A stretch of DNA of 64,000 nucleotides from Aminithiophilus ramosus (GTDB taxonomy: Bacteria > Synergistota > Synergistia > Synergistales > Aminithiophilaceae): assembly GCF_018069705.1 (NCBI RefSeq), contig NZ_CP072943.1, positions 2,943,945 through 3,007,944 of the forward strand, given 5' to 3'. Under the pieces are notes generated by a model that was not told where the DNA came from, ran no database searches, and saw nothing but the letters and a program-made list of their open reading frames with translations. Shown here piece by piece: positions 24,930-35,500 of the stretch. Within the stretch, counting starts at the first letter, position 1. Every line of letters starts with the position of its first letter. Both the position numbers and the translations under genes were made by a program.

Positions 24930-25193
24930 CTATTCAATATCCGTATTACCTCTATAACGCAGGTTTTTTCGTTCAAATGAAATCAATCCTCCATTTTCGT
25001 CGAGAAAGACATCGTAACGACCCAACACATCCATCGTTTCCGGTATGGATTTACGCTCAAGCCCTTCGACAGACACAATCCATTGACCATCCATCCTAGA
25101 AACTCCCACCACTCTCTCTACAGAAAGTTGAGCTAAAAGAGAAAGATCTTCTCTGGCTTTTTTAATAGCCTCTTCAGCATTCACAATTTTCAC
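24930..25193 (-). CDS. Small hypothetical protein, last gene of the gvp operon
   Basis: 87-aa ORF, AT-rich codon usage like the rest of the island. No recognisable motif. Confidence 0.4.
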   Translation of the reverse strand: MKIVNAEEAIKKAREDLSLLAQLSVERVVGVSRMDGQWIVSVEGLERKSIPETMDVLGRYDVFLDENGGLISFERKNLRYRGNTDIE

Positions 25194-25215
25194 TTCCCAT
25201 CATTATATTTACATT

Positions 25216-25779
25216 TCAAGCTATAGAGTTAATCCTATTTTCTAAAACGGATTTGATTTTAAGCATATCACGAGAACGCAACAAGAATGAACCACCTGAC
25301 ACAAGAGAGAAATCCATGACATCCATTTCCAAACTACCTTCATCTTTCTTTTTAGTTACATTAAATATATTTACATCCGACAAAAAACATCTCAATATGA
25401 CATTTTTAGAGTTGTTTTGAGAAACAATTAGTTCGTTAGATGTAATACAAAGAAATCCTGATTTCCAATTTTCATAAGGACAATTATTTTTTAGTATAGA
25501 AACAAATGTTTTCAAAAAGACTTTTTCATTCAAATTTAAAATAAGTTTATTTTTTTCTGTTTCTTCAATGGCATATGCCCTTTGAGCTTCATCCCAATCA
25601 TTCCATATGCCATAACGAAGCATTGTCTCCATTCCAGCAATACAAGCCTTAAGACTTAATCCTAACAAAGGAATTCCAGCAACATGAATAATTATATCAG
25701 CATGAAGAACAATTCCTTTATCTAGAATTCTCTCTAACAAATCAACCAAAGTTGCATCGTAATCCCTAGTAGGCTTCAT
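25216..25779 (-). CDS. GvpJ/GvpM-family protein (GvpA-like core plus C-terminal extension)
   Basis: N-terminus LVDLLERILDKGIVLHADIIIHVAGIPLLGLSLKACIAGMETMLRYG aligns with the GvpA core. Confidence 0.7.
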   Translation of the reverse strand: MKPTRDYDATLVDLLERILDKGIVLHADIIIHVAGIPLLGLSLKACIAGMETMLRYGIWNDWDEAQRAYAIEETEKNKLILNLNEKVFLKTFVSILKNNCPYENWKSGFLCITSNELIVSQNNSKNVILRCFLSDVNIFNVTKKKDEGSLEMDVMDFSLVSGGSFLLRSRDMLKIKSVLENRINSIA

Positions 25780-25788
25780 GCTAACGCT

Positions 25789-26625
25789 TTATTCCACGTA
25801 GTTAGAGCTAATACTCCGAGAAATTCCACTTATATCACCAACAAAGCTATAAAGTGGCCAAGGCCCTGTAAATCTGACAGAAAAACTATCATATAATTTT
25901 ATTTCATCCAAAAAATTACCTAAACCGTCAATTTTATCGTTATCAACCATACAGGACAGGTTTAATATCATTTTAGACGAAGCATCAGTTTTTTTAGGCT
26001 TTTCTATTACAATTTCACTGCAGCAAGACAAAACTTTATTATAAAAATAATCAGAAAACTTATTTATTTCAATTAAAACTTCATCCTTAATGGCCTTATC
26101 TAGTTTTTGTTTATACATATAAGCAACTCCCGGAGACTTCAAATCAATATCTTGCTTTAATTTAAGTAGATATTTATTTTCAAAAGCTATTTTATTTTCC
26201 AAAACATCCGTTGCACAAAAAAGCTGGACAACATATTCATTTTTATTTTTAAATCTACGCATCATGCAGGTTAGAGATTCTTGCTCTTCTTGAAGCCATT
26301 TTAATATTACATGATCAGAAGAAAGCTCTCCCTGAGCGCAGACAATCGTATCAAAACTAACAGGGACAACACAATCAAACACCTTACTCGCTTCATCGAG
26401 CACTCGATGATGATCCATCACCCACGCTCGAACTGAATCCGCCTCTGCCGATCGATAAGGCTGCGGAAGACAATCATGAACGATAGCGCATAAATCCCCG
26501 GAGATAATCATGCGAACCGGTTTGCCACCAATCCCCAAAGAAGTGAAAGACACTCTCTCCAAAATCAAGGCAAGACCATAAACGTACCTCCCATCCTCTT
26601 CAAAAGGTGGAAAAACCTTCTCCAT
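25789..26625 (-). CDS. Gas vesicle protein GvpF/GvpL family (copy 2)
   Basis: N-terminal YVYGLALI..GIGG..V motif typical of GvpF/L. Size 278 aa. Confidence 0.65.
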   Translation of the reverse strand: MEKVFPPFEEDGRYVYGLALILERVSFTSLGIGGKPVRMIISGDLCAIVHDCLPQPYRSAEADSVRAWVMDHHRVLDEASKVFDCVVPVSFDTIVCAQGELSSDHVILKWLQEEQESLTCMMRRFKNKNEYVVQLFCATDVLENKIAFENKYLLKLKQDIDLKSPGVAYMYKQKLDKAIKDEVLIEINKFSDYFYNKVLSCCSEIVIEKPKKTDASSKMILNLSCMVDNDKIDGLGNFLDEIKLYDSFSVRFTGPWPLYSFVGDISGISRSISSNYVE

Positions 26626-26696
26626 CGCCAGCGCCCCCTCATTCAGACAAAAAAGGCCCTGTCCTCCATGGCAAACCCATGGCTAAAGCCTCATCT

Positions 26697-27011
26697 TTAT
26701 CTATCAATCTCATCACGCCAACGCTCTGGATTCACAATACGATCCAAAACGTCACCAACCACTTGATCCAATCCATCGCGCACAGCTTGAACCGACTCAA
26801 CAAGGTCATTATCCTTTTTGATTTCTTCTAGAGCAATTTCAAGCTCCATTAAAGCCTCTCCAAGACGCTCACACTCTGCCTCTCGGATAGAGCCTTCATC
26901 CATTCTTTTAACGGCTTCAATTTTAAGAGCATCGCGAATGACTTCAACAAGAGCTACGACCAACCCCAACAACCCCTGCTTCAAATTTCCTTCGTCAATA
27001 TTAAGAGACAT
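26697..27011 (-). CDS. gvpK: Gas vesicle protein GvpK
   Basis: LLGLVVALVEVIRDALKIEAVKRMDEGSIREAECERLGEALMELE matches the GvpK consensus. Confidence 0.7.
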   Translation of the reverse strand: MSLNIDEGNLKQGLLGLVVALVEVIRDALKIEAVKRMDEGSIREAECERLGEALMELEIALEEIKKDNDLVESVQAVRDGLDQVVGDVLDRIVNPERWRDEIDR

Positions 27012-27014
27012 TAA

Positions 27015-27455
27015 TTACTCCTTGTCAAGCGTTATCTTCAACACACCATTCCTATATTCAATTATATGAGACATTTCGTTTGGTATTCTAGGGACGACGT
27101 TCACGGATGCGATTAAAGTAATTTTATTCCCTTCAGAATATATATCCATACATGAAAATTCTTTATTTAATCCTATCTCATCCACAAACCACCACTGGAA
27201 AAACCATTGCTTACCGTCACACGGATCTATTTTTGATTCTTTAAAAACAATAATGGAGTATCCTAATATTTTTTCAGAATTTGTATTTATTATATGTTTT
27301 ATTCTATAAATTATCTCAAAGTCATTCCTACAGCTTAAATCCCGTCTAAGATCCACTATGCTTGCATGACGTCTCCACCAAACGTCCAGCAGCAAAATTT
27401 TGCTTATTGAATCTATGGAATCCAACAAGTCAGATAAAAAATTCCTGTTGTCCAT
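27015..27455 (-). CDS. Hsp20/alpha-crystallin-like small protein (possible GvpH-type chaperone)
   Basis: C-terminal ...EYRNGVLKITLDK resembles the Hsp20 C-terminal beta strand. Weak overall. Confidence 0.4.
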   Translation of the reverse strand: MDNRNFLSDLLDSIDSISKILLLDVWWRRHASIVDLRRDLSCRNDFEIIYRIKHIINTNSEKILGYSIIVFKESKIDPCDGKQWFFQWWFVDEIGLNKEFSCMDIYSEGNKITLIASVNVVPRIPNEMSHIIEYRNGVLKITLDKE

Positions 27456-27463
27456 ATTTAAAT

Positions 27464-27844
27464 TTAATCTACGATAGCAATGGATTCTTCGTTTTTATCC
27501 AACAAAGACTCTCTAGCCCTGGCACTGACCCATCCGCACCAAGGACAACATTTCGACAAAAGCTCTTCCGTAAAAACTCGCTTTCCGCACTGAGGACATG
27601 TTTCCTTGCCTTTTTGCGCTTCTTTCCAGGCATCTGTATTGTAATTTGTTCCACTTGGAAATTCCAATCCATAATGAGCCGCAGTTTCGAAAGAAGCTAA
27701 AGCAGCTCGTATCTTTATTCCAAGCAATTCAACACCTGCTACAGACACGCAAATATCGGCATTGATAACTAAACCCTTATCTAAAACACGGTCGATAACA
27801 TCGACCAGCGTCGAACTTGCCTCTCGTGTGGGTTGCATAGACAT
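27464..27844 (-). CDS. GvpJ/GvpA-family protein fused to a C-terminal zinc ribbon
   Basis: LVDVIDRVLDKGLVINADICVSVAGVELLGIKIRAALASFETAAHYG (GvpA-like) followed by CPQCG...CPWCG. Confidence 0.7.
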   Translation of the reverse strand: MSMQPTREASSTLVDVIDRVLDKGLVINADICVSVAGVELLGIKIRAALASFETAAHYGLEFPSGTNYNTDAWKEAQKGKETCPQCGKRVFTEELLSKCCPWCGWVSARARESLLDKNEESIAIVD

Positions 27845-27853
27845 CGACCGTTC

Positions 27854-28090
27854 TCACCTCTCAGCCTTTATTTTTTTTAATCTTTCTATTAGATCATTTT
27901 CGAGTTCATCGTATTCATTTTCACTCAAGTTTCCATCTTCCAATGATTTTTGAATTTCTTTAAGCCTAGCTCTAATGGCATCTTCTGTCATCAGGCCTTC
28001 CTTATCTATTTCTTTTTTAATGGCAAGAATAATTTCTTTCGACAAAATAACGGGGATACCTATGAAAATATCTTTTATTAAACCTAACAT
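27854..28090 (-). CDS. gvpG: Gas vesicle protein GvpG
   Basis: 78 aa. MLGLIKDIFIGIPVIL...GNLSENEYDELENDLIERL matches the GvpG family pattern. Confidence 0.7.
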   Translation of the reverse strand: MLGLIKDIFIGIPVILSKEIILAIKKEIDKEGLMTEDAIRARLKEIQKSLEDGNLSENEYDELENDLIERLKKIKAER

Positions 28091-28842
28091 GGTTTTTTAA
28101 AATAATTCATTTCCACATTCAAAAACGTATAGGGAGGCAGAGGAGCAATACACTTAAAATTAAATTTATTATTATACTTTTCATCCAATTTATGGATTGA
28201 TTTTATAAAATCGTCTTTATCGGCTTTTTTTACAAGAAATGAGGCGTTTAGCACATTTTCTATACCAGATTCAGAGTCTTTATGGCTATCAAGAGCTATA
28301 TTTTTGAAATAACCATATATATCATCAGAATAAATATTTCTTTTGTCTAGAAGCAATGATTCTACTAATTTGCCAGCATCTATTTTAATATTTTGTTTTT
28401 CTAACAAAGAAGATGTTTTATTAATTTTAGATTTAATTTTAACTATTTCCTTGTTGTTGACTTCAATTTCTTTTATTTCTGAGTTATAATCCCAATAAAC
28501 CTTGACAACCACCTCAATGACGCCTGATAACCGATTTATTTCATTGACTATGGATTCTTTGCTTTTTTGCAGTAAATCCATCATTTCATTCTTAGATGCA
28601 AGTACACCAAATCCTGCTGGGAGTAAAGTGTATTTATCCATCAAAAATTCTTGCACGGTCGCGTGTGTGGAAATATTTTTCCTGGTCGGATATATTTCAT
28701 CGTTACCAAAGTCACTGACAACAGCAGAAATTTTATCTATACTAATAGAATAAACTTTTGAACTATTAATACCAATTACATCAAAAATCTTAAAATCAGG
28801 CTCATTTATAATACCATAAAAATATTTATTTTTAATATTCAT
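28084..28842 (-). CDS. Gas vesicle protein GvpF/GvpL family (copy 1)
   Basis: KYFYGIINEP...KVYSISIDKISAVVSDF is the GvpF/L N-terminal signature. Confidence 0.65.
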   Translation of the reverse strand: MNIKNKYFYGIINEPDFKIFDVIGINSSKVYSISIDKISAVVSDFGNDEIYPTRKNISTHATVQEFLMDKYTLLPAGFGVLASKNEMMDLLQKSKESIVNEINRLSGVIEVVVKVYWDYNSEIKEIEVNNKEIVKIKSKINKTSSLLEKQNIKIDAGKLVESLLLDKRNIYSDDIYGYFKNIALDSHKDSESGIENVLNASFLVKKADKDDFIKSIHKLDEKYNNKFNFKCIAPLPPYTFLNVEMNYFKKPC

Positions 28843-28846
28843 AAAA

Positions 28847-30973
28847 TCACCTCTTGCGTTCCATTACACTATTAATGGCTAAATCAAAATGATTTTTAAG
28901 TATAACAATTTTATTTTCACCGTTTGAAGCCATATATTCTCTTAACGCCAAGCGAGCTGCTTCTTGACATAACTGCTTGAGCTCTGCTCCAGAAAAATCT
29001 TCTGTACGCATAGAAATTTCTTCAAGCGAGACATCGCCATCCAAAGGCATTTTTTTGCTATGTATCTTAAGGATTTCTATCCGATCATCTTTATCTGGAA
29101 GATTGAAATTTAAAATTAGATCAAATCTGCCCGGGCGAATGATCGCTGGATCTATCAAATCTTGCCTATTGCTTGCAGCTAAAACTAAAACATCTTTGAG
29201 CTCTTCAATTCCATCCATTTCGGAGAGGAATTGGCTGATTACTCGATCAATAACTTGAGAATCTCCAAAAGAATGTCTTAGAGGGACCAATGAATCAAAT
29301 TCATCGAAAAATAAAATACAAGGGCTTGCCTGTCTCGCTTTACGAAATACCTCTCGAACTCCTTTTTCCGACTCTCCAACATATTTAGACAAAAGCTCCG
29401 AGCCTTTTACGGATATGAAATTAATTTCACTTTCGTTGGCCATGGCCTTCACCACTAACGTTTTACCCAATCCGGGAGACCCCGAGAGCAAGATGCCCTT
29501 CGGCGGCCGAAGCCCCACGCTCGCAAGCAGCTCGCCATGCTTAAGCGGCCAAGCCACCGCCTCCGAAAGCTGCCTCTTGATCTCGCGAAGGCCACCGACA
29601 TCTTCCCAGCTCACGTCGGGCACCTCCACGAAAACCTCCCGAATGGCCGATGGTTCCACTTCTTTGAGGGCACCAAGGAAGTCGTCCATCATCACTTCCA
29701 TTTGCAAAATATCGATGTCGGCGACCTCTTCGATCCGACAGGTGTAATCGGGAACGACCCTCCGCAGGACGCTCATGGCTGCCTCCCGACACAGGGCCTC
29801 CATATCGGCACCGACAAAACCGTGAGTCACTCGCGACAACCTCTCCAAATCGACATCGGAGGCGAGCGGCATGCCTCGAACGTGGATGCTCAATATCTCC
29901 AACCTGTCCCTCTGGTCCGGTATGGCGATCTCCAGCTCCCGATCAAACCGTCCCGGGCGACGAAGCGCCGGATCCAAGGCGTTGGGTATATTCGTCGCAC
30001 CGATGACAATGACGTCACCGCGCGACTCTAGGCCATCCATCAGAGCCAACAGCTGCGCGACCACCCGCCTCTCCACCTGTTTCTCCCCGCCCATTTCCTC
30101 CCGCTTGGGGGCAATGGCATCGATCTCGTCGATAAAAAGAATCGACGGGGCATTCTTTCTGGCCTCTTCAAAAAAGCCCCTCAACCTGGCCTCGCTCTCA
30201 CCATAAAACTTGCCCATAATTTCAGGCCCCGTCACATGGACGAAATACGCTGCCGTTTCACTGGCGACAGCCCTGGCGATCAGGGTTTTTCCACAGCCCG
30301 GAGGACCATAGAGCAATACCCCCTTCGGGGGATCTATACCCAGTCGATCGAAAAGGCGGGGACATTTCAGAGGAAGTTCGATCATTTCTCGTATTTTTTT
30401 AAGCTCTCTTGACAATCCACCTATATCTTCATAGGATATTTTGGATCTTTTAGTTGAATTTTGTTGAATTTTATCTAATAAAATACGAGTTTTTTGCGAA
30501 ATAAGGACAGGTCCGCCAGGAGTGGTATTATTGACCAAAAAATCCTGATTCCTGTTTCCCATAAAGTTAACTCTTATGAAATCACCCTCTATAACGGCAA
30601 GACCTGTCAAAATGGATCCTATATAGGAAATATCCTTATCTCCAAGTGGAATACGAACGTTTGACAAAGGAGCTATGACAATCTTTTCCGCTAATTTAAA
30701 ATCTATCTTTATTACATTGACGTTATTGTTCAATGACGTTTTTGCATTGTTTCTTAGAGTCCAATCCATTTGAATTATTCTTTTTCCTCGATCTTGCGGA
30801 AAAGTAGGCATTATTTTAGCTATAGTTTGCCTTTCTCCTTCAATCTGAACCACATCGCCTACACTTACACCCATTATTTCCATATCTACAGGGTCTATGC
30901 GAACAATTCCTCTCCCGACATCTTTTAAATTAGATTCAGCTACAATAAATACTGAATTATTGATTTTTCCCAT
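28847..30973 (-). CDS. CDC48/VCP-like AAA+ ATPase (N-domain plus two AAA domains)
   Basis: CDC48-type N-domain (SNLKDVGRGIVRIDPVDMEIMGVSVGDVVQIEG) and two Walker A motifs, GPPGCGKT and GSPGLGKT. D1 is encoded by a GC-rich block. Confidence 0.8.
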   Translation of the reverse strand: MGKINNSVFIVAESNLKDVGRGIVRIDPVDMEIMGVSVGDVVQIEGERQTIAKIMPTFPQDRGKRIIQMDWTLRNNAKTSLNNNVNVIKIDFKLAEKIVIAPLSNVRIPLGDKDISYIGSILTGLAVIEGDFIRVNFMGNRNQDFLVNNTTPGGPVLISQKTRILLDKIQQNSTKRSKISYEDIGGLSRELKKIREMIELPLKCPRLFDRLGIDPPKGVLLYGPPGCGKTLIARAVASETAAYFVHVTGPEIMGKFYGESEARLRGFFEEARKNAPSILFIDEIDAIAPKREEMGGEKQVERRVVAQLLALMDGLESRGDVIVIGATNIPNALDPALRRPGRFDRELEIAIPDQRDRLEILSIHVRGMPLASDVDLERLSRVTHGFVGADMEALCREAAMSVLRRVVPDYTCRIEEVADIDILQMEVMMDDFLGALKEVEPSAIREVFVEVPDVSWEDVGGLREIKRQLSEAVAWPLKHGELLASVGLRPPKGILLSGSPGLGKTLVVKAMANESEINFISVKGSELLSKYVGESEKGVREVFRKARQASPCILFFDEFDSLVPLRHSFGDSQVIDRVISQFLSEMDGIEELKDVLVLAASNRQDLIDPAIIRPGRFDLILNFNLPDKDDRIEILKIHSKKMPLDGDVSLEEISMRTEDFSGAELKQLCQEAARLALREYMASNGENKIVILKNHFDLAINSVMERKR

Positions 30974-31502
30974 TTTTAGGAGATATTTCTATTTTAAAAA
31001 TTCCATTTAAATAAGAATGAAGGAGTGTGTTTTGGTTTACATTGAATTCAGTTTTGATTTCCTTAAAGTATTTTCTTGATTTGCTCTCTGCTTGAACAAC
31101 TATAGTTCCATCTGTTATTTCAATCATAATATCTTCTTCATTCACGCCGGGCATTTCTAGAACTATAACCATTCTATCTTTTTCGTTAAAAATATCCGTT
31201 ATAGGTTCCCTGACTTCTTGTTGGTTATTTTCCAAATCAGATATTTTTTTATTTCCAAATGTTTCAATTATCGGCTTGCCTGCTAAATTTTTTACAGTAA
31301 AACCATAAATGCCCCGAATTCCTTCGGGGCTTTCAATAGATCCCTTTTTTTCAACTACATCAAACCTATCGACCATATCCAATAAACTACCTAACCCCTT
31401 AAAAATTCCTTCAAAACTTATTTTACCTTTTTTGAAATCTATCTCTATTTTATCTTTCTCTTCATCCGGATTTTCTTTTTTTTTACTATTATCCATTGTC
31501 AT
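30957..31502 (-). CDS. Hsp20/alpha-crystallin family chaperone (GvpH-like)
   Basis: Alpha-crystallin domain: MVIVLEMPGVNEEDIMIEITDGTIVVQAE ... NGIFKIEISPK. Confidence 0.75.
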   Translation of the reverse strand: MTMDNSKKKENPDEEKDKIEIDFKKGKISFEGIFKGLGSLLDMVDRFDVVEKKGSIESPEGIRGIYGFTVKNLAGKPIIETFGNKKISDLENNQQEVREPITDIFNEKDRMVIVLEMPGVNEEDIMIEITDGTIVVQAESKSRKYFKEIKTEFNVNQNTLLHSYLNGIFKIEISPKNGKNQ

Positions 31503-31535
31503 TTACGCAACACCCCGATCTAGGCGCTAAAACAT

Positions 31536-32465
31536 CTAATAATTCTCAACATTACCATATGGTTCTCTTTCAATATTGCTGGCTGCATCAATAATAAGCC
31601 TAGAAACCGAGGCTCTTTTTTTACTTGATATAATTGGCAATATAGTATCGTTGCATATTTCAATAAATCTATCTTCAGATATGTTGCCCTTTTTATCCAA
31701 AAAATCTATATATTTCGCTATTTTAATAGAAGACCGCACAGTGGGAGTAAGTTTATCCGAATAGTTATTTCTTATGGTTCTTATTAATTTAACTATTCTA
31801 ACTATTTCGCTTTCACATAAATCCACTCTACCTCGCACAATTGCTACTTCCGTCTCTTCGTCAAAGCTGCTTAACTCCAATGTTACCAGTCTATCTTTTA
31901 ATGCATCTTGACTTTTATAAACACCGGCATATTCCTCTGGGTTGGACGTGAATATCGCCCTGAAGTCGGGATGAACCCTAACGTAAGACTCTTTACCATT
32001 TCTACCCGAAACAGGAAGTATTTTACTCTCCAGCACTGATAAAAGGACGTTATTGGCCTCTGGTCTAGATCTAGTGAATTCATCATAGACAAGCGTCAGT
32101 CCACGCTCACACGCGACAGTCAGCCTGTTATCAAACCACTGAGACGTCATTACATCTTCTGTCTTGACAACAGACCTAATAAAATTGTCTTTAGTGTAAT
32201 TATGACGATATCCGGACACATAACCGACCAGATCGGAAGTTCCAAATTCATGATCACCACAAATCAAAACGACAGGACGACCTATTTTTGCGGCCACATG
32301 CATCGCTAAAGTCGTCTTGCCCACTCCAGTAGGTCCGCTTAAATGAATAGGAAAGCCACAGGAAGAATAACTAAGGGCTTTTTCGGATATTTTTGATATG
32401 TATGGAGTTTCTACAAACTCCAAGCTTGGCCTTGAAGTAATAAGCGTCATCCTTCCTCGATCCAT
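31536..32465 (-). CDS. gvpN: Gas vesicle protein GvpN (MoxR/CbbQ-like AAA+ ATPase)
   Basis: Walker A LSGPTGVGKTTLA, Walker B LVYDEF. Size 309 aa is typical of GvpN. Confidence 0.8.
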   Translation of the reverse strand: MDRGRMTLITSRPSLEFVETPYISKISEKALSYSSCGFPIHLSGPTGVGKTTLAMHVAAKIGRPVVLICGDHEFGTSDLVGYVSGYRHNYTKDNFIRSVVKTEDVMTSQWFDNRLTVACERGLTLVYDEFTRSRPEANNVLLSVLESKILPVSGRNGKESYVRVHPDFRAIFTSNPEEYAGVYKSQDALKDRLVTLELSSFDEETEVAIVRGRVDLCESEIVRIVKLIRTIRNNYSDKLTPTVRSSIKIAKYIDFLDKKGNISEDRFIEICNDTILPIISSKKRASVSRLIIDAASNIEREPYGNVENY

Positions 32466-32492
32466 AACTTAAATACCTCCAAAATCACAGGA

Positions 32493-32873
32493 TCAGTAAT
32501 GCATTTCAAAATTCTCATCATTCACTGCGTCGCCATCGCTTGAGTCGCACATATCAGAGCTATTCTCTTTTTGCAGTTCTCTGCGCAACTCCATCAGGGC
32601 TTTATTTTTGTCAATAATAACTGCAAGCTTCTTTCTGGAATTCAAAAGGCGCGCCCTGGCTCTCTCGACCGATTGCAACCTAGAGGCGAAACGCCTCTTC
32701 TCTCGCTCGAGCATCGTTTGGAAATTGCGATCCTTTTCCAAATCCGGAGCATCGTTATTATCAAAGGCACGAAACAAAGCACCTGTCGTCCTGGCTTTTT
32801 GGCCACGGAAAACTTCAGCATTGCTTTTAATATGGCGCATTGTTCGAAGTTTAGTCAGAGCTTCACTTTTCAC
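32493..32873 (-). CDS. Hypothetical basic protein between the coiled-coil gene and gvpN (possible GvpO-like)
   Basis: 126 aa, helical and charged, with an acidic C-terminus. No firm motif. Confidence 0.4.
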   Translation of the reverse strand: MKSEALTKLRTMRHIKSNAEVFRGQKARTTGALFRAFDNNDAPDLEKDRNFQTMLEREKRRFASRLQSVERARARLLNSRKKLAVIIDKNKALMELRRELQKENSSDMCDSSDGDAVNDENFEMHY

Positions 32874-33888
32874 CGATTTCTACCTCCCCTTCTGACAAAG
32901 GGAAATAAAGCTTACCCTCCCTTCGAATCCCGCCCTCATCCAAGAGATTTCTTGACACTCGTCCCAACGCCACTGTGGCCATGCCCAACTTATCGGCCAC
33001 ATCGGTCAGGGAGATACCTTCAGGATGCGCCTTAATGACTGACAAAAACCTGGTCTTAAGATCTTCCCCCGTCACAGCAAAGTCCTCTTCCTCCGTTGCG
33101 CGTTCAAGTACGGAGCAATCCGGGTCCCTCTCATCCGCCTCGGGAGAGGCGTCATCTCTTGATTCGACGGAAGGTTCGGCTTCAACCTCATCGTCTTCGC
33201 AAGACTCTTCATTCACAAGGCATTCCGACCAAACCGCTCTCGTCTCCTCAAGCAAGTCAATAATGACCTGCCTTTCTTTGTTTAAATTATTTCTTAACAT
33301 ATCTACGCTTTGTTTCATGTTGGAAATATCCGCTAATCTTTTTTGACGTAATTCATCGAATTGATTTTTTAATGATTCACGAATGTCACTTAAAATATCT
33401 TTAACCTCTTTATGCAGGTTTTCTATCTCAATCTTACGGTTATTGATATTCAATCTAACATTTTCATTATACTGTTTTTTTAGCGATAAAATCTTTTCTC
33501 TTGATGCTTCTATTCTCTTCTTATTTTCTTCTTTGAGCTCTTCTCTTATATCTGGGGTATTTTTTTGGGATGCCAACCTTGACGCCTCAAAAAGAAGATC
33601 AAGCTCTTTTTTGAAGCCATCCAACATATCTGCCGTGGATTTTTTAATTTCCATGACTTCTTCTTCTATTTTCTTTTTATTTTGAACCAGCTTTGATTTC
33701 ATCGACTCTTTCTCATCAAATCTCTCGGTAGAAAAGGTTTTAAGTGTTTCATCTATTGTTTTTTTAAGATCTTGGAGATTTTGATATCTATCGGCATGAG
33801 AATCAGCCAACTCCTGAACCAATGACCTAGTCTCTTCCAATAAATTCACAGTCCATCCCTCCTCGGTTATTATGGTTTTAAATCTCAA
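32863..33888 (-). CDS. Coiled-coil protein with C-terminal winged-helix (MarR/ArsR-like) domain
   Basis: About 230 aa of heptad-rich, K/E-rich sequence, then ISLTDVADKLGMATVALGRVSRNLLDEGGIRREGKLYFPL. Confidence 0.5.
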   Translation of the reverse strand: MRFKTIITEEGWTVNLLEETRSLVQELADSHADRYQNLQDLKKTIDETLKTFSTERFDEKESMKSKLVQNKKKIEEEVMEIKKSTADMLDGFKKELDLLFEASRLASQKNTPDIREELKEENKKRIEASREKILSLKKQYNENVRLNINNRKIEIENLHKEVKDILSDIRESLKNQFDELRQKRLADISNMKQSVDMLRNNLNKERQVIIDLLEETRAVWSECLVNEESCEDDEVEAEPSVESRDDASPEADERDPDCSVLERATEEEDFAVTGEDLKTRFLSVIKAHPEGISLTDVADKLGMATVALGRVSRNLLDEGGIRREGKLYFPLSEGEVEIGEK

Positions 33889-33939
33889 AACCCATTATTT
33901 TGCAATTTAACATAAAAATTCATCTAAATGCATTAATAA

Positions 33940-34641
33940 TCAAATTTCATCGCGTGTTGCGATAGGTTCTATTCTATATTGCGATCTTTCATCTTTAAAT
34001 CTACCCAAAGTGGCTCTTACTTCTTCTCTTCTTAAATCCCTATCTTGTTCTCTTGTAAATCTACTTTTTATTGTTTCAAGCTGCCACATGTCTTTCATTT
34101 CTAGGGAGCTGGACCGCTCCAACAGGCGGCGCATAGAATTGTTCCATTCCAACATTATTTTTTTATAGCATTGAATTTTATACTGAAATTTACATAATTG
34201 CTGAAATACGTCGTCTCCGTTTTTTTGATAAGTCCCTTTCATTTCATCAACGAAACATTCCAGCTCTTTTTTATCTATAGTCTTTTTAATGCAATTATAA
34301 ACTTTAGTTTTAAGAGTTAGCGTCAACTCTATCTGTTCTTTTAAATATCTCCTCAGAGATAGCTCGATTTCTTGACTATCAGCTATAAGAACGTCTCTAT
34401 CTTTATCTATTCCATCAAAAAGCCTATTCATGAAGTTATCAAAATCTTTTTTTCTGAAAGAACAATTTCTCGCTGCCATCTCTCTCAAGTCTACGCGCAG
34501 GTGATCGCGCTCTTTATGAAGGATTTCCAAATCCTCCGCCAAGCTCGACGTGACCTCATGGACCGTAGAGACCATCTCTTCCACCATGAGGATCCTTGAC
34601 GAATGGGCATCGATAAGATCAAGGAGCATACATTCATCCAT
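33940..34641 (-). CDS. Hypothetical helical protein immediately downstream of the gvpA array (GvpC-position)
   Basis: ORF extends to 34689, but the compositional change suggests the start at MDECMLLD (34641). Confidence 0.4.
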   Translation of the reverse strand: MDECMLLDLIDAHSSRILMVEEMVSTVHEVTSSLAEDLEILHKERDHLRVDLREMAARNCSFRKKDFDNFMNRLFDGIDKDRDVLIADSQEIELSLRRYLKEQIELTLTLKTKVYNCIKKTIDKKELECFVDEMKGTYQKNGDDVFQQLCKFQYKIQCYKKIMLEWNNSMRRLLERSSSLEMKDMWQLETIKSRFTREQDRDLRREEVRATLGRFKDERSQYRIEPIATRDEI

Positions 34642-34732
34642 TTTCGATACTTGGCCTCCCGAGGAAGGGCATATGGCCTGGCAGGGCACGCTTGCGAAAC
34701 AAGGGAACCCTGGCAGACCTCCACAAAGGAAC

Positions 34733-34942
34733 TTACGCGGAGATCGGAGCCGTCAGGCCGACCGCTTCGGCGTACTTCAGGTAGGTCTCCACACCGGCGA
34801 CGACCACCCGTGCCTCGACGGTCAGAAGTTCCAGCCCCAACAGGGAGATCCGCACCCACGCATCGATCACGAGACCCTTGTCGAGAATCCGATCGATGAC
34901 CTCAGCCAGACCCGACGAAGCCATAGACGTCTGCACTGCCAT
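34733..34942 (-). CDS. gvpA: Major gas vesicle structural protein GvpA (copy 3 of 3)
   Basis: [69 protein letters not shown] is canonical GvpA. Confidence 0.95.
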
Positions 34943-35011
34943 TTCGTTCCGCCTCCTTACGAGTCTTTCCTTGGGCTTTCCTTGCCTCCTGCGGGAGGGC
35001 GCCGCCGATCC

Positions 35012-35221
35012 CTACGCGGAGATCGGAGCCGTCAGGCCGACCGCTTCGGCGTACTTCAGGTAGGTCTCCACACCGGCGACGACCACCCGTGCCTCGACGG
35101 TCAGAAGCTCCAGCCCCAACAGGGAGATCCGCACCCACGCATCGATCACGAGACCCTTGTCGAGAATCCGATCGATGACCTCAGCCAGACCCGACGAAGC
35201 CATAGACGTCTGCACTGCCAT
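35012..35221 (-). CDS. gvpA: Major gas vesicle structural protein GvpA (copy 2 of 3)
   Basis: Protein identical to the other copies. RBS GGAGG 8 nt upstream of the ATG. Confidence 0.95.
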
Positions 35222-35290
35222 TTCGTTCCGCCTCCTTACGAGTCTTTCCTTGGGCTTTCCTTGCCTCCTGCGGGAGGGCGCCGCCGATCC

Positions 35291-35500
35291 CTACGCGGAG
35301 ATCGGAGCCGTCAGGCCGACCGCTTCGGCGTACTTCAGGTAGGTCTCCACACCGGCGACGACCACCCGTGCCTCGACGGTCAGAAGCTCCAGCCCCAACA
35401 GGGAGATCCGCACCCACGCATCGATCACGAGACCCTTGTCGAGAATCCGATCGATGACCTCAGCCAGACCCGACGAAGCCATAGACGTCTGCACTGCCAT
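35291..35500 (-). CDS. gvpA: Major gas vesicle structural protein GvpA (copy 1 of 3, promoter-proximal)
   Basis: Identical GvpA. RBS AGGAGGTG upstream. AT-rich promoter region at 35510-35640. Confidence 0.95.

Follow-up and report, generated by a model that had tools for sequence, protein, structure and literature searches.

A Conserved Four-Cysteine Ribbon on a GvpJ-Type Gas-Vesicle Protein of Aminithiophilus ramosus and Its Relatives

Introduction

Of the steps of gas-vesicle assembly, nucleation is understood least (PMC9994262, PMC11445434). In Bacillus megaterium, GvpJ, GvpS, and GvpK are required for the interaction of GvpA2 with GvpL and are proposed to act as vesicle seeders (PMC11445434), and among the accessory proteins GvpJ tolerates mutation least (PMC9501494). 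Here we consider gvpJ-ZnR, a GvpJ-type gene in a gas-vesicle (gvp) cluster of Aminithiophilus ramosus, whose product joins a GvpA-like shell domain to a C-terminal ribbon with four paired cysteines (Cys4 ribbon). The gene lies in a 64,000-nt stretch of DNA, referred to here as the window (contig NZ_CP072943.1, positions 2,943,945 to 3,007,944). An identical protein, in A. ramosus and in the complete Synergistota genome CP074691.1, carries only the annotation “gas vesicle protein.” The locus raises the question of how widespread such a ribbon is, and what it may do on a GvpJ protein. Its domain architecture, conservation, gene linkage, and recurrence on other proteins are reported below as observed, followed by the role that they suggest.

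Domain Architecture of the GvpJ-ZnR Protein

The full product of gvpJ-ZnR, MSMQPTREASSTLVDVIDRVLDKGLVINADICVSVAGVELLGIKIRAALASFETAAHYGLEFPSGTNYNTDAWKEAQKGKETCPQCGKRVFTEELLSKCCPWCGWVSARARESLLDKNEESIAIVD, begins with MSMQPTRE, and its ribbon-region C-terminus reads KETCPQCGKRVFTEELLSKCCPWCGWVS. The ribbon cysteines form the pairs C83/C86 and C100/C103, with 13 residues from CxxC to CxxC and 12 between “CPQCG” and “CPWCG”; Cys99 is an extra, non-conserved cysteine, at a position occupied by Gly in 77% of relatives. AlphaFold2 (AF2) models depended on the depth of the alignment: 23 close homologues gave a mean predicted local distance difference test (pLDDT) score of 50.6, and 120 sequences including a second, diverged subfamily raised it to 64, with ~83 at residues 80–110, the best-scoring stretch. 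In the deeper model, strands 80–82 and 89–91 are predicted around the first knuckle, a helix at 92–97 (the conserved EELL) precedes the second knuckle, and a further helix starts at 108. This prediction fits a compact, metal-stapled mini-domain at residues 80–110. The tail that follows the ribbon is basic (AKAKKAK-like) in most homologues, whereas it is acidic in the window protein (ESLLDKNEESIAIVD).

Judged by its sequence, the gvpJ-ZnR product is a Gas_vesicle family member of the GvpJ type. Residues 12–50 match Pfam Gas_vesicle (PF00741) with E=1.3e-16 and 60.9 bits against a cutoff of 25, and a family profile matches the solved GvpA structures 8GBS (E=6.7e-15, GvpA residues 5–57) and 7R1C (E=6.5e-13). 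The shell core has a mean identity of 91% to 80 relatives; in the AF2 model it comprises helix 13–23, strands 29–35 and 38–45, and helix 52–58, at low pLDDT (~45–65), and the best Foldseek matches of the model are 7R1C (probability 0.94, E=0.017, template modeling score 0.2–0.33) and 8GBS (probability 0.84). Among NCBIfam models, haloarchaeal GvpJ ranks highest (7.1e-29, 99.7 bits), ahead of GvpM (3e-18, 65 bits) and GvpA (1e-15, 58 bits), with all three scores under the cutoffs of those narrow models, of which the GvpJ model is a haloarchaea-specific “exception” model with a cutoff of 125 bits. The protein also carries the motifs given for J/M proteins, here RAALA at 46–50 and HYGL at 57–60, together with a hydrophilic extension (PMC8716928). 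Its EFPSGT linker corresponds to the EFP(S/E)GT motif common to haloarchaeal-type GvpJ representatives, and linker residues E61, F62, P63, S64, G65, T66, and W73 are 99–100% conserved in the 80 relatives. GvpA (7R1C, 8GBS) belongs to the same Pfam family; unlike the window protein, however, it is ~70 aa long, ends soon after alpha2, and lacks both the EFPSGT linker and the ribbon.

The initial annotation, made from the nucleotide sequence, had read this ORF (open reading frame) as a GvpA/J-like paralogue fused to a C-terminal two-CxxC zinc ribbon, and this is borne out by the 126-aa ORF, its Gas_vesicle match, and its four paired cysteines. The proposed alignment of the N-terminal ~60 aa with the GvpA core is significant in the Pfam, NCBIfam GvpJ, and 8GBS/7R1C profile matches. 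Two details need amending: there is indeed an ORF at 27464–27844, on the minus strand, and the spacing given as CPQCG-(x13)-CPWCG holds only when counted from CxxC to CxxC. The profile search that the annotation had proposed placed the Gas_vesicle family above its cutoff and no zinc-ribbon family at threshold.

Among characterized systems, GvpJ of Halobacterium salinarum (p-vac, 114 aa) resembles the window protein in its GvpA-like N-terminal half, its RAA(I/L)A and (E/H)YGL motifs, and its hydrophilic C-terminal extension, and its gene is likewise encoded with gvpG, gvpK, gvpL, and gvpM. However, Halobacterium GvpJ aligns only to residues 4–67 of the window protein (58–61% identity, tblastn), and its acidic tail varies from cluster to cluster and contains no cysteine (PMC8716928, PMC9501494), whereas the window-type Cys4 ribbon is conserved across phyla. 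B. megaterium GvpJ and GvpS (pNL29) are GvpA homologues that are shell-integrated and proposed at tips and as seeds; a metal-binding tail is unmentioned for them in the papers cited here. Generic prokaryotic zinc ribbons (Zn_ribbon_3, Zn_Ribbon_1, DZR; L37e/S27a; RNA polymerase subunit P) share with the tail two CPxCG-type knuckles ~13 residues apart within ~30 aa. Yet matches to them are weak (E=0.004–0.04 in Pfam, 0.17–0.9 in the PDB, none at gathering score), and the helix with ELL between the knuckles and the CGW(V/I)SA(K/R) continuation distinguish the gas-vesicle module from them. All PDB sequence matches to the tail had E>0.1, and no solved structure matches the ribbon.

Conservation and Distribution of the Ribbon

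The protein search returned 3781 clusters, of which the best 120 were examined (114–131 aa, 70–95% identical); all 120 carry CxxC-x13-CxxC with the exact spacing of 13. Scanning a single genome for each species gave at least 568 species-level genomes with a relative, and the best 80 genome loci were retrieved and compared. The four cysteines are kept in 80/80 of these species-representative loci, one of which has a spacing of x14. Two conserved CxxC knuckles, which would supply the four metal ligands of a zinc ribbon, are present throughout both sets. Among the 80 loci, more than 15 bacterial phyla are represented (Nitrospirota, Chloroflexota, Atribacterota, Actinomycetota, Bacteroidota, Desulfobacterota, Firmicutes, Thermotogota, Planctomycetota, Omnitrophota, Zixibacteria, Patescibacteria, and others) as well as archaea (Methanophagales [ANME-1], Methanoregula, Methanomicrobiaceae, Methanomassiliicoccaceae, and Thermoplasmata). 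Ribbon-bearing GvpJ proteins also occur on a Streptomyces plasmid (66% identity) and a Natrinema plasmid (61%), which weakens the idea of a redox-linked feature restricted to anaerobes. Some archaeal match spans were long, e.g., 553 nt for 124 residues, and were considered as longer proteins; the archaeal ORFs are of normal length (121–131 aa) with gvpM immediately downstream, so that the long spans probably extend into the adjacent paralogue.

The ribbon stretch has 70% mean identity across the 80 species, with C83, P84, C86, L95, C100, C103, G104, and W105 invariant and K88, P101, W102, S107, and A108 conserved at 98–99%. The four cysteines are also kept in the second, diverged subfamily, which is 35–48% identical and comprises mostly Bathyarchaeia and a Nanoarchaeota member. 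In the joint 120-sequence alignment, which reaches down to 35% identity, ten columns are invariant (K23, G24, S51, P63, C83, P84, C86, C100, W102, and C103); the ribbon accounts for six of them, the shell domain for three (K23, G24, and S51), and the GvpJ linker for P63. Conservation of the four-cysteine motif is far beyond chance. No other accessory protein of this cluster type is as conserved across the 80 loci as GvpJ-ZnR, whose median identity is 75%, compared with 62% for CDC48, 61% for GvpK, 52% for GvpN, 37% for GvpL, and 33% for GvpF.

The fusion of GvpJ and ribbon is therefore common and very widespread in sequence space. The initial annotation had called it unusual, which holds against the studied models, Halobacterium GvpJ being cysteine-free, and does not hold across sequenced genomes. 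It had also staked its claim beforehand on the conservation of the cysteine pairs in orthologues, which proved invariant in both sets and down to 35% identity, and the fusions that it proposed to seek in other gvp clusters were found in every one of the 80 related loci. Full-text literature yielded no paper tying gas vesicles to a zinc ribbon or finger, CxxC, rubredoxin, or GvpJ cysteines, and among curated families no Pfam or NCBIfam model describes the GvpJ ribbon tail. The ribbon is a conserved module, gvp-specific within the related loci searched, without a description in curated families, solved structures, or the searchable literature.

Gene Linkage in Related Clusters

Gene linkage was counted in the 22 loci that are flanked on both sides by 8 kb or more. 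gvpK, gvpL, and gvpM are each present in 22/22, Hsp20 in 21, and CDC48 and gvpN in 17. The CDC48-family protein is a double-AAA ATPase that scores 891 bits against the cutoff of 803 for TIGR01243; the literature yielded no paper on a CDC48-type ATPase in gas-vesicle clusters. Minimal modules are found on plasmids of Streptomyces sp. SGAir0924 (locus L087, 9001–11594) and Natrinema zhouii (locus L088, 9001–11561), where gvpJ-ZnR, optionally an orf146-like gene, gvpK, gvpL, and gvpM follow the same order as in the larger clusters; within 9 kb of them no gvpA, gvpN, gvpF, or gvpG is annotated, and there is no CDC48. These modules may act together with a cluster located elsewhere or may serve some other purpose. 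In a Bathyarchaeia metagenome-assembled genome (JASEET010000006.1; locus L089, 10497–14320), a GvpL/F-DnaJ fusion of 328 aa is followed by an Hsp70 of 642 aa; Hsp70/DnaJ here replaces CDC48/Hsp20, and the arrangement gvpG-...-gvpJ-ZnR-...-gvpK-gvpL is kept. The ribbon is thus present where CDC48 is absent or replaced, and is conserved independently of the CDC48 ATPase.

The gene downstream of gvpJ-ZnR, orf146, is conserved at that place in many phyla, with homologues at the same position in 40 of the 80 loci, and gave no family match in Pfam or NCBIfam profile scans. By eye, its C-terminus resembles the strand pattern of small heat-shock (alpha-crystallin) proteins, and the protein at the orf146 position on the Natrinema plasmid has an “F.WWF” motif too; some other loci have a separate second Hsp20 after the orf146 homologue. 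Three further genes, orf126, orf341, and orf249, are syntenic in 8–10 of the 22 well-covered loci, and orf341 has a weak Rad50 coiled-coil match only.

Recurrence of the Module on Other Proteins

Copies of the ribbon outside gvpJ were sought in ~1 Mb of related loci (4323 ORFs) and in the 64-kb window. A hidden Markov model (HMM) of the GvpJ tail matched only GvpJ, the C-termini of GvpM (E 1e-8 to 1e-13), and a two-ribbon protein adjacent to gvpJ, and nothing else in the related loci matched it convincingly; the window holds one copy, in GvpJ. The shared signature is (E)-x-C-P-x-C-G-x6-(E/D)-L-(L/I)-x2-3-G-C-x-x-C-G-(W/Y). By count of the listed matches, 43 of the best 150 50%-identity representatives from an exhaustive HMMER search carry CxxC...CxxC, 28 of them GvpJ-like and 15 long GvpM-like proteins of 219–387 aa. 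In the long GvpM-like proteins a Gas_vesicle domain is followed by one or two PH/GRAM-like domains, and a ribbon ends the chain, the PH/GRAM-like assignment resting on relatives that match the Vps36 GLUE domain (1.5e-6) and, weakly, bPH_3. GvpM ends in a ribbon in 25 of the 58 related loci with a visible GvpM. The GvpM-like paralogue of the window has one PH/GRAM-like domain and no ribbon, where many orthologues have two such domains and a ribbon.

The two-ribbon protein (100–165 aa) carries tandem GvpJ-type ribbons (CPxCGKxVVKKELxKKGCYxCGW) and lies beside gvpJ in ~17 loci, usually directly downstream, although in locus L012 it follows gvpM instead; it is absent from the window. Since the GvpJ ribbon is found in 80/80 loci, the GvpJ copy is the constant one, and the copies on GvpM and the two-ribbon protein are optional. 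Separately, a distinct class of small Cys-rich proteins of 55–107 aa with four CxxC pairs (KCPKCG..FCxxCGE..IxCxxCG..WR(F/Y)..(F/Y)CPxCG) recurs in or near related gvp clusters; none was found in the cluster region of the window (24–36.5 kb).

A Proposed Docking Role and Its Alternatives

Three considerations, position, topology, and linkage, suggest that the ribbon docks proteins in the seeding complex. It takes the place of the C-terminal half of GvpJ, which in Halobacterium is essential and binds GvpG, GvpH, and GvpL, and where truncation of the tail by 5 residues abolishes vesicles (PMC8716928). GvpJ of the B. megaterium type withstands a 6 M urea wash, and an end tag on it is reachable by SpyCatcher on purified particles (PMC10327013), which indicates that in B. 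megaterium-derived vesicles the GvpJ tail is outside and accessible. Linkage argues in the same direction, both through the constant company of gvpK, gvpL, and gvpM and through the gene order kept in the plasmid modules, since the linked proteins, GvpJ, GvpS/M, and GvpK, are those proposed to seed vesicles and to mediate contact between GvpA and GvpL (PMC11445434).

We therefore favor, with moderate confidence, the view that the ribbon is a knob, stabilized by metal, through which a GvpJ seed protein embedded in the shell docks others at its cytoplasmic face, within a J-M-K-L(-G) nucleation complex. In this account we infer metal binding, the choice of zinc, surface exposure, and the identity of the partners. 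Residues 1–60 would be inserted in the vesicle wall as a GvpA-like alpha-beta-beta-alpha unit, and past the EFPSGT linker the chain would fold into a compact mini-domain held by C83, C86, C100, and C103, with one Zn(II) as the metal that they most probably bind. By analogy with tagged GvpJ in B. megaterium-type vesicles, the ribbon tail would lie on the cytoplasmic face, and may there take the place of the acidic, cysteine-free haloarchaeal tail as a rigid docking surface, formed by the conserved and presumably exposed residues L95, W102, G104, and W105. The soluble seeding factors GvpL and GvpK are the candidate docking partners, and GvpG, GvpM, and small heat-shock-like proteins are further candidates; the ribbon would in this way help to assemble or shape the first bicone tip.

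Several results weigh against this account. No Pfam zinc-ribbon model reached threshold on the tail, the best being Zn_ribbon_3 with 16.4 of the required 27 bits, followed by Zn_Ribbon_1 (15.7 of 25) and DZR (14.5 of 27.3). Structure searches recovered the GvpA part alone and not the ribbon, and the modest overall confidence of the AF2 model (mean 64) leaves the placement of the ribbon relative to the shell core unreliable in it. The assignment of partners, moreover, draws on gene linkage and on analogy with other GvpJ tails, to which the ribbon is not homologous.

Other explanations of the same observations have to be weighed. The ribbon could be a rigid, metal-stapled spacer without a partner, its bulkier outer face setting the curvature or termination of the cone tip, or it could mediate self-association of GvpJ. 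That the strongest conservation falls on structural residues (Cys, Pro, Gly, and Trp) would suit such a role, as would the integration of GvpJ into the shell in other systems (PMC10327013) and the loss of vesicles on the short Halobacterium truncation, which suggests a need for a given size or shape (PMC8716928). However, the surface-type residues K88, E94, L95, and S107 are near-invariant as well, and the same module is carried by the soluble two-ribbon protein, which has no shell domain, a better match for an interaction module than for an element that acts by bulk alone; we consider a spacer unlikely. A handle for the CDC48-family AAA+ unfoldase of the cluster, which with Hsp20 would keep GvpJ (and GvpM) soluble or feed it to the growing tip, seems less probable again. 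The operon does encode Hsp20 and a bona fide CDC48-family ATPase (891 bits), the ATPase is found in 17 of the 22 well-covered loci at a median identity of 62%, and both paralogues that carry the module, J and M, are prone to aggregation. Conversely, 5/22 loci have no CDC48 nearby, the Streptomyces and Natrinema plasmid modules keep the ribbon with no CDC48 in reach, and the Bathyarchaeia cluster has Hsp70/DnaJ instead; on these grounds a CDC48 adaptor was demoted as the primary explanation.

The Cys4 site might also be a redox or iron center that ties seeding to oxygen or redox conditions, either like rubredoxin or as a zinc switch responsive to oxidants. Zn and Fe are indistinguishable from sequence alone, both knuckles are of the CPxCG rubredoxin type, some members bear the label “rubredoxin” in JGI automatic annotation, and the host lineages are mostly anaerobes. 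Yet the 13-residue spacing and ~30-aa size are unlike the ~47 positions of the Pfam Rubredoxin model (PF00301), which gave E=0.93 on one relative and no match on the window tail, and the ribbon is kept in aerobes (the Streptomyces plasmid and the haloarchaeon Natrinema), making a redox center very improbable in our estimation. As to nucleic acid, which the initial annotation had named beside protein as a possible contact, binding of the ribbon to its own mRNA or to DNA, with autoregulation by GvpJ, could be suggested by the sub-threshold likeness to zinc ribbons of L37e/S27a/L37ae, RNA polymerase subunit P, and topoisomerase, and by the basic residues that follow the ribbon in many homologues. 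But those matches are far under the family thresholds and reflect a generic CxxC pattern only, the protein is a hydrophobic shell-type subunit, the tail of the window protein (ESLLDKNEESIAIVD) is acidic, and a conserved target on nucleic acid was neither looked for nor seen, so that this is the remotest of the explanations considered and hardly credible; genomic context and the literature favor the protein–protein half of the earlier suggestion.

Genomic Setting of gvpJ-ZnR

The coordinates of gvpJ-ZnR, of its parts, and of its neighbors are given in Table 1, together with examples from related loci. The window cluster is a complete gas-vesicle cluster by content, with three copies of gvpA and with gvpN, gvpF, gvpG, gvpK, gvpL, a gvpM-like gene, and gvpO on the same strand between 24930 and 35500; gvpC was not identified among its genes. 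The minus-strand order is gvpA x3 - orf249 - orf341 - orf126 - gvpN - Hsp20 - CDC48-family ATPase - gvpF - gvpG - gvpJ-ZnR - orf146 - gvpK - gvpL - gvpM-like (PH-like domain) - gvpO, all co-directional. A Shine-Dalgarno-like AGGTGA, read directly from the sequence, lies 9 nt 5′ of the gvpJ-ZnR ATG and overlaps the gvpG stop codon, suggesting translational coupling of gvpG and gvpJ-ZnR.

TABLE 1. Features of gvpJ-ZnR and its cluster in the window, and examples of Cys-rich proteins in related loci (L numbers denote loci).
Feature	Coordinates	Strand	Basis or remarks
gvpJ-ZnR	27464..27844	minus	Complete ORF, 126 aa + stop codon; GvpJ-type minor shell protein with C-terminal Cys4 ribbon
GvpA-like shell core, residues 12–60 (alpha1-beta1-beta2-alpha2)	27665..27811	minus	Pfam, AF2, Foldseek
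GvpJ-specific linker, residues 61–78 (EFPSGTNYNTDAWKEAQK)	27611..27664	minus	Short predicted helix 71–77
Cys4 ribbon module, residues 79–107 (GKETCPQCGKRVFTEELLSKCCPWCGWVS)	27524..27610	minus	AF2 pLDDT ~83; tail HMM E=1.7e-22
First knuckle, C83-P-Q-C86	27587..27598	minus	Sequence; invariant in homologues
Second knuckle, C100-P-W-C103, then invariant G104-W105	27536..27547	minus	Sequence; invariant in homologues
Variable C-terminal tail, residues 108–126, predicted helical (AF2 helix 108–124)	27467..27523	minus	15% mean identity
gvpG	27854..28090	minus	Directly upstream of gvpJ-ZnR, 9-nt gap; Pfam GvpG E=9.8e-9
orf146	27015..27455	minus	Directly downstream of gvpJ-ZnR; conserved gene
gvpK	26697..27011	minus	Pfam GvpK E=1.3e-16
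gvpL	25789..26625	minus	Pfam GvpL_GvpF 4.2e-47; NCBIfam GvpL 1.5e-46
GvpM-like paralogue, 187 aa, with added PH/GRAM-like domain	25216..25779	minus	Pfam Gas_vesicle 1.4e-15; NCBIfam GvpM 5.9e-27
CDC48-family ATPase / Hsp20	28847–30973 / 30957–31502	minus	Between gvpN and gvpF
orf126, orf341, orf249	32493–34689	minus	Between gvpA and gvpN
gvpA x3, tandem	34733–35500	minus	279-bp period
Two-ribbon protein, examples	L015 10388–10714; L018 8656–9012; L010 2786–3217; L012 11680–12072		~13 more loci
Four-CxxC-pair proteins, examples	L018 12787–13110; L033 13527–13748; L013 6503–6700; L075 7521–7688		Others also found

Base composition sets the cluster apart from its host. The 14 accessory gvp genes have 28–46% GC (cluster ~39%) vs. 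~66% for the genome, and GC at third codon positions (GC3) is 0.23–0.47 in these genes vs. 0.77–0.80 in the three gvpA copies, across 24930–35500. The values for gvpA match host flanking genes, such as those for an M20 peptidase (0.80) and DctM (0.88). The low GC3 of the accessory genes is consistent with foreign origin; either gvpA has been recoded or replaced toward host codon usage, or the cluster is mosaic. An assembly chimera was ruled out, as independent ENA, Logan, and JGI metagenome contigs repeat the low-GC cluster with its high-GC flanks, which argues for a real acquired island. The second and third gvpA copies do not differ at any of their 279 nt. Near-identical gvp proteins have been deposited as “Candidatus Atribacteria bacterium” (HCU22329/22333). 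The ENA contig k141_78507 (locus L002, 14013 nt) carries the cluster followed by DNA of 56–61% GC that resembles the Synergistota host. Together these suggest a mis-binned low-GC island or a very recent transfer.

Implications for Gas-Vesicle Seeding

In what is apparently the most widely distributed cluster type among the scanned genomes, GvpJ carries an invariant four-cysteine knob that is better conserved than any other accessory protein, and that offers a concrete and cheap experimental entry point. The GvpJ ribbon points to an unstudied step of gas-vesicle seeding, and its recurrence on GvpM and the two-ribbon protein suggests a modular interaction code. A bolder reading, which we hold only tentatively and regard as rather doubtful, is that outside a few model organisms seeding uses a cluster-specific zinc-ribbon network of GvpJ, GvpM, and a two-ribbon adaptor that would be metal-dependent and would nucleate the bicone tip. 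If such a network exists, vesicles in hundreds of bacterial and archaeal lineages would need a suitable metal or thiol status in order to form, and that status could act as a gate; the ribbon would then also serve as a natural handle for engineering the vesicle surface. Gas vesicles serve as acoustic reporter genes, and for this use a compact, surface-exposed, metal-stapled GvpJ tail may be a possible functionalization site. If the ribbon is instead merely a fold-stabilizing variant of the usual GvpJ tail, the result would be a useful refinement of annotation and no more. The finding overturns nothing; it exposes a widespread and testable feature of gas-vesicle assembly.

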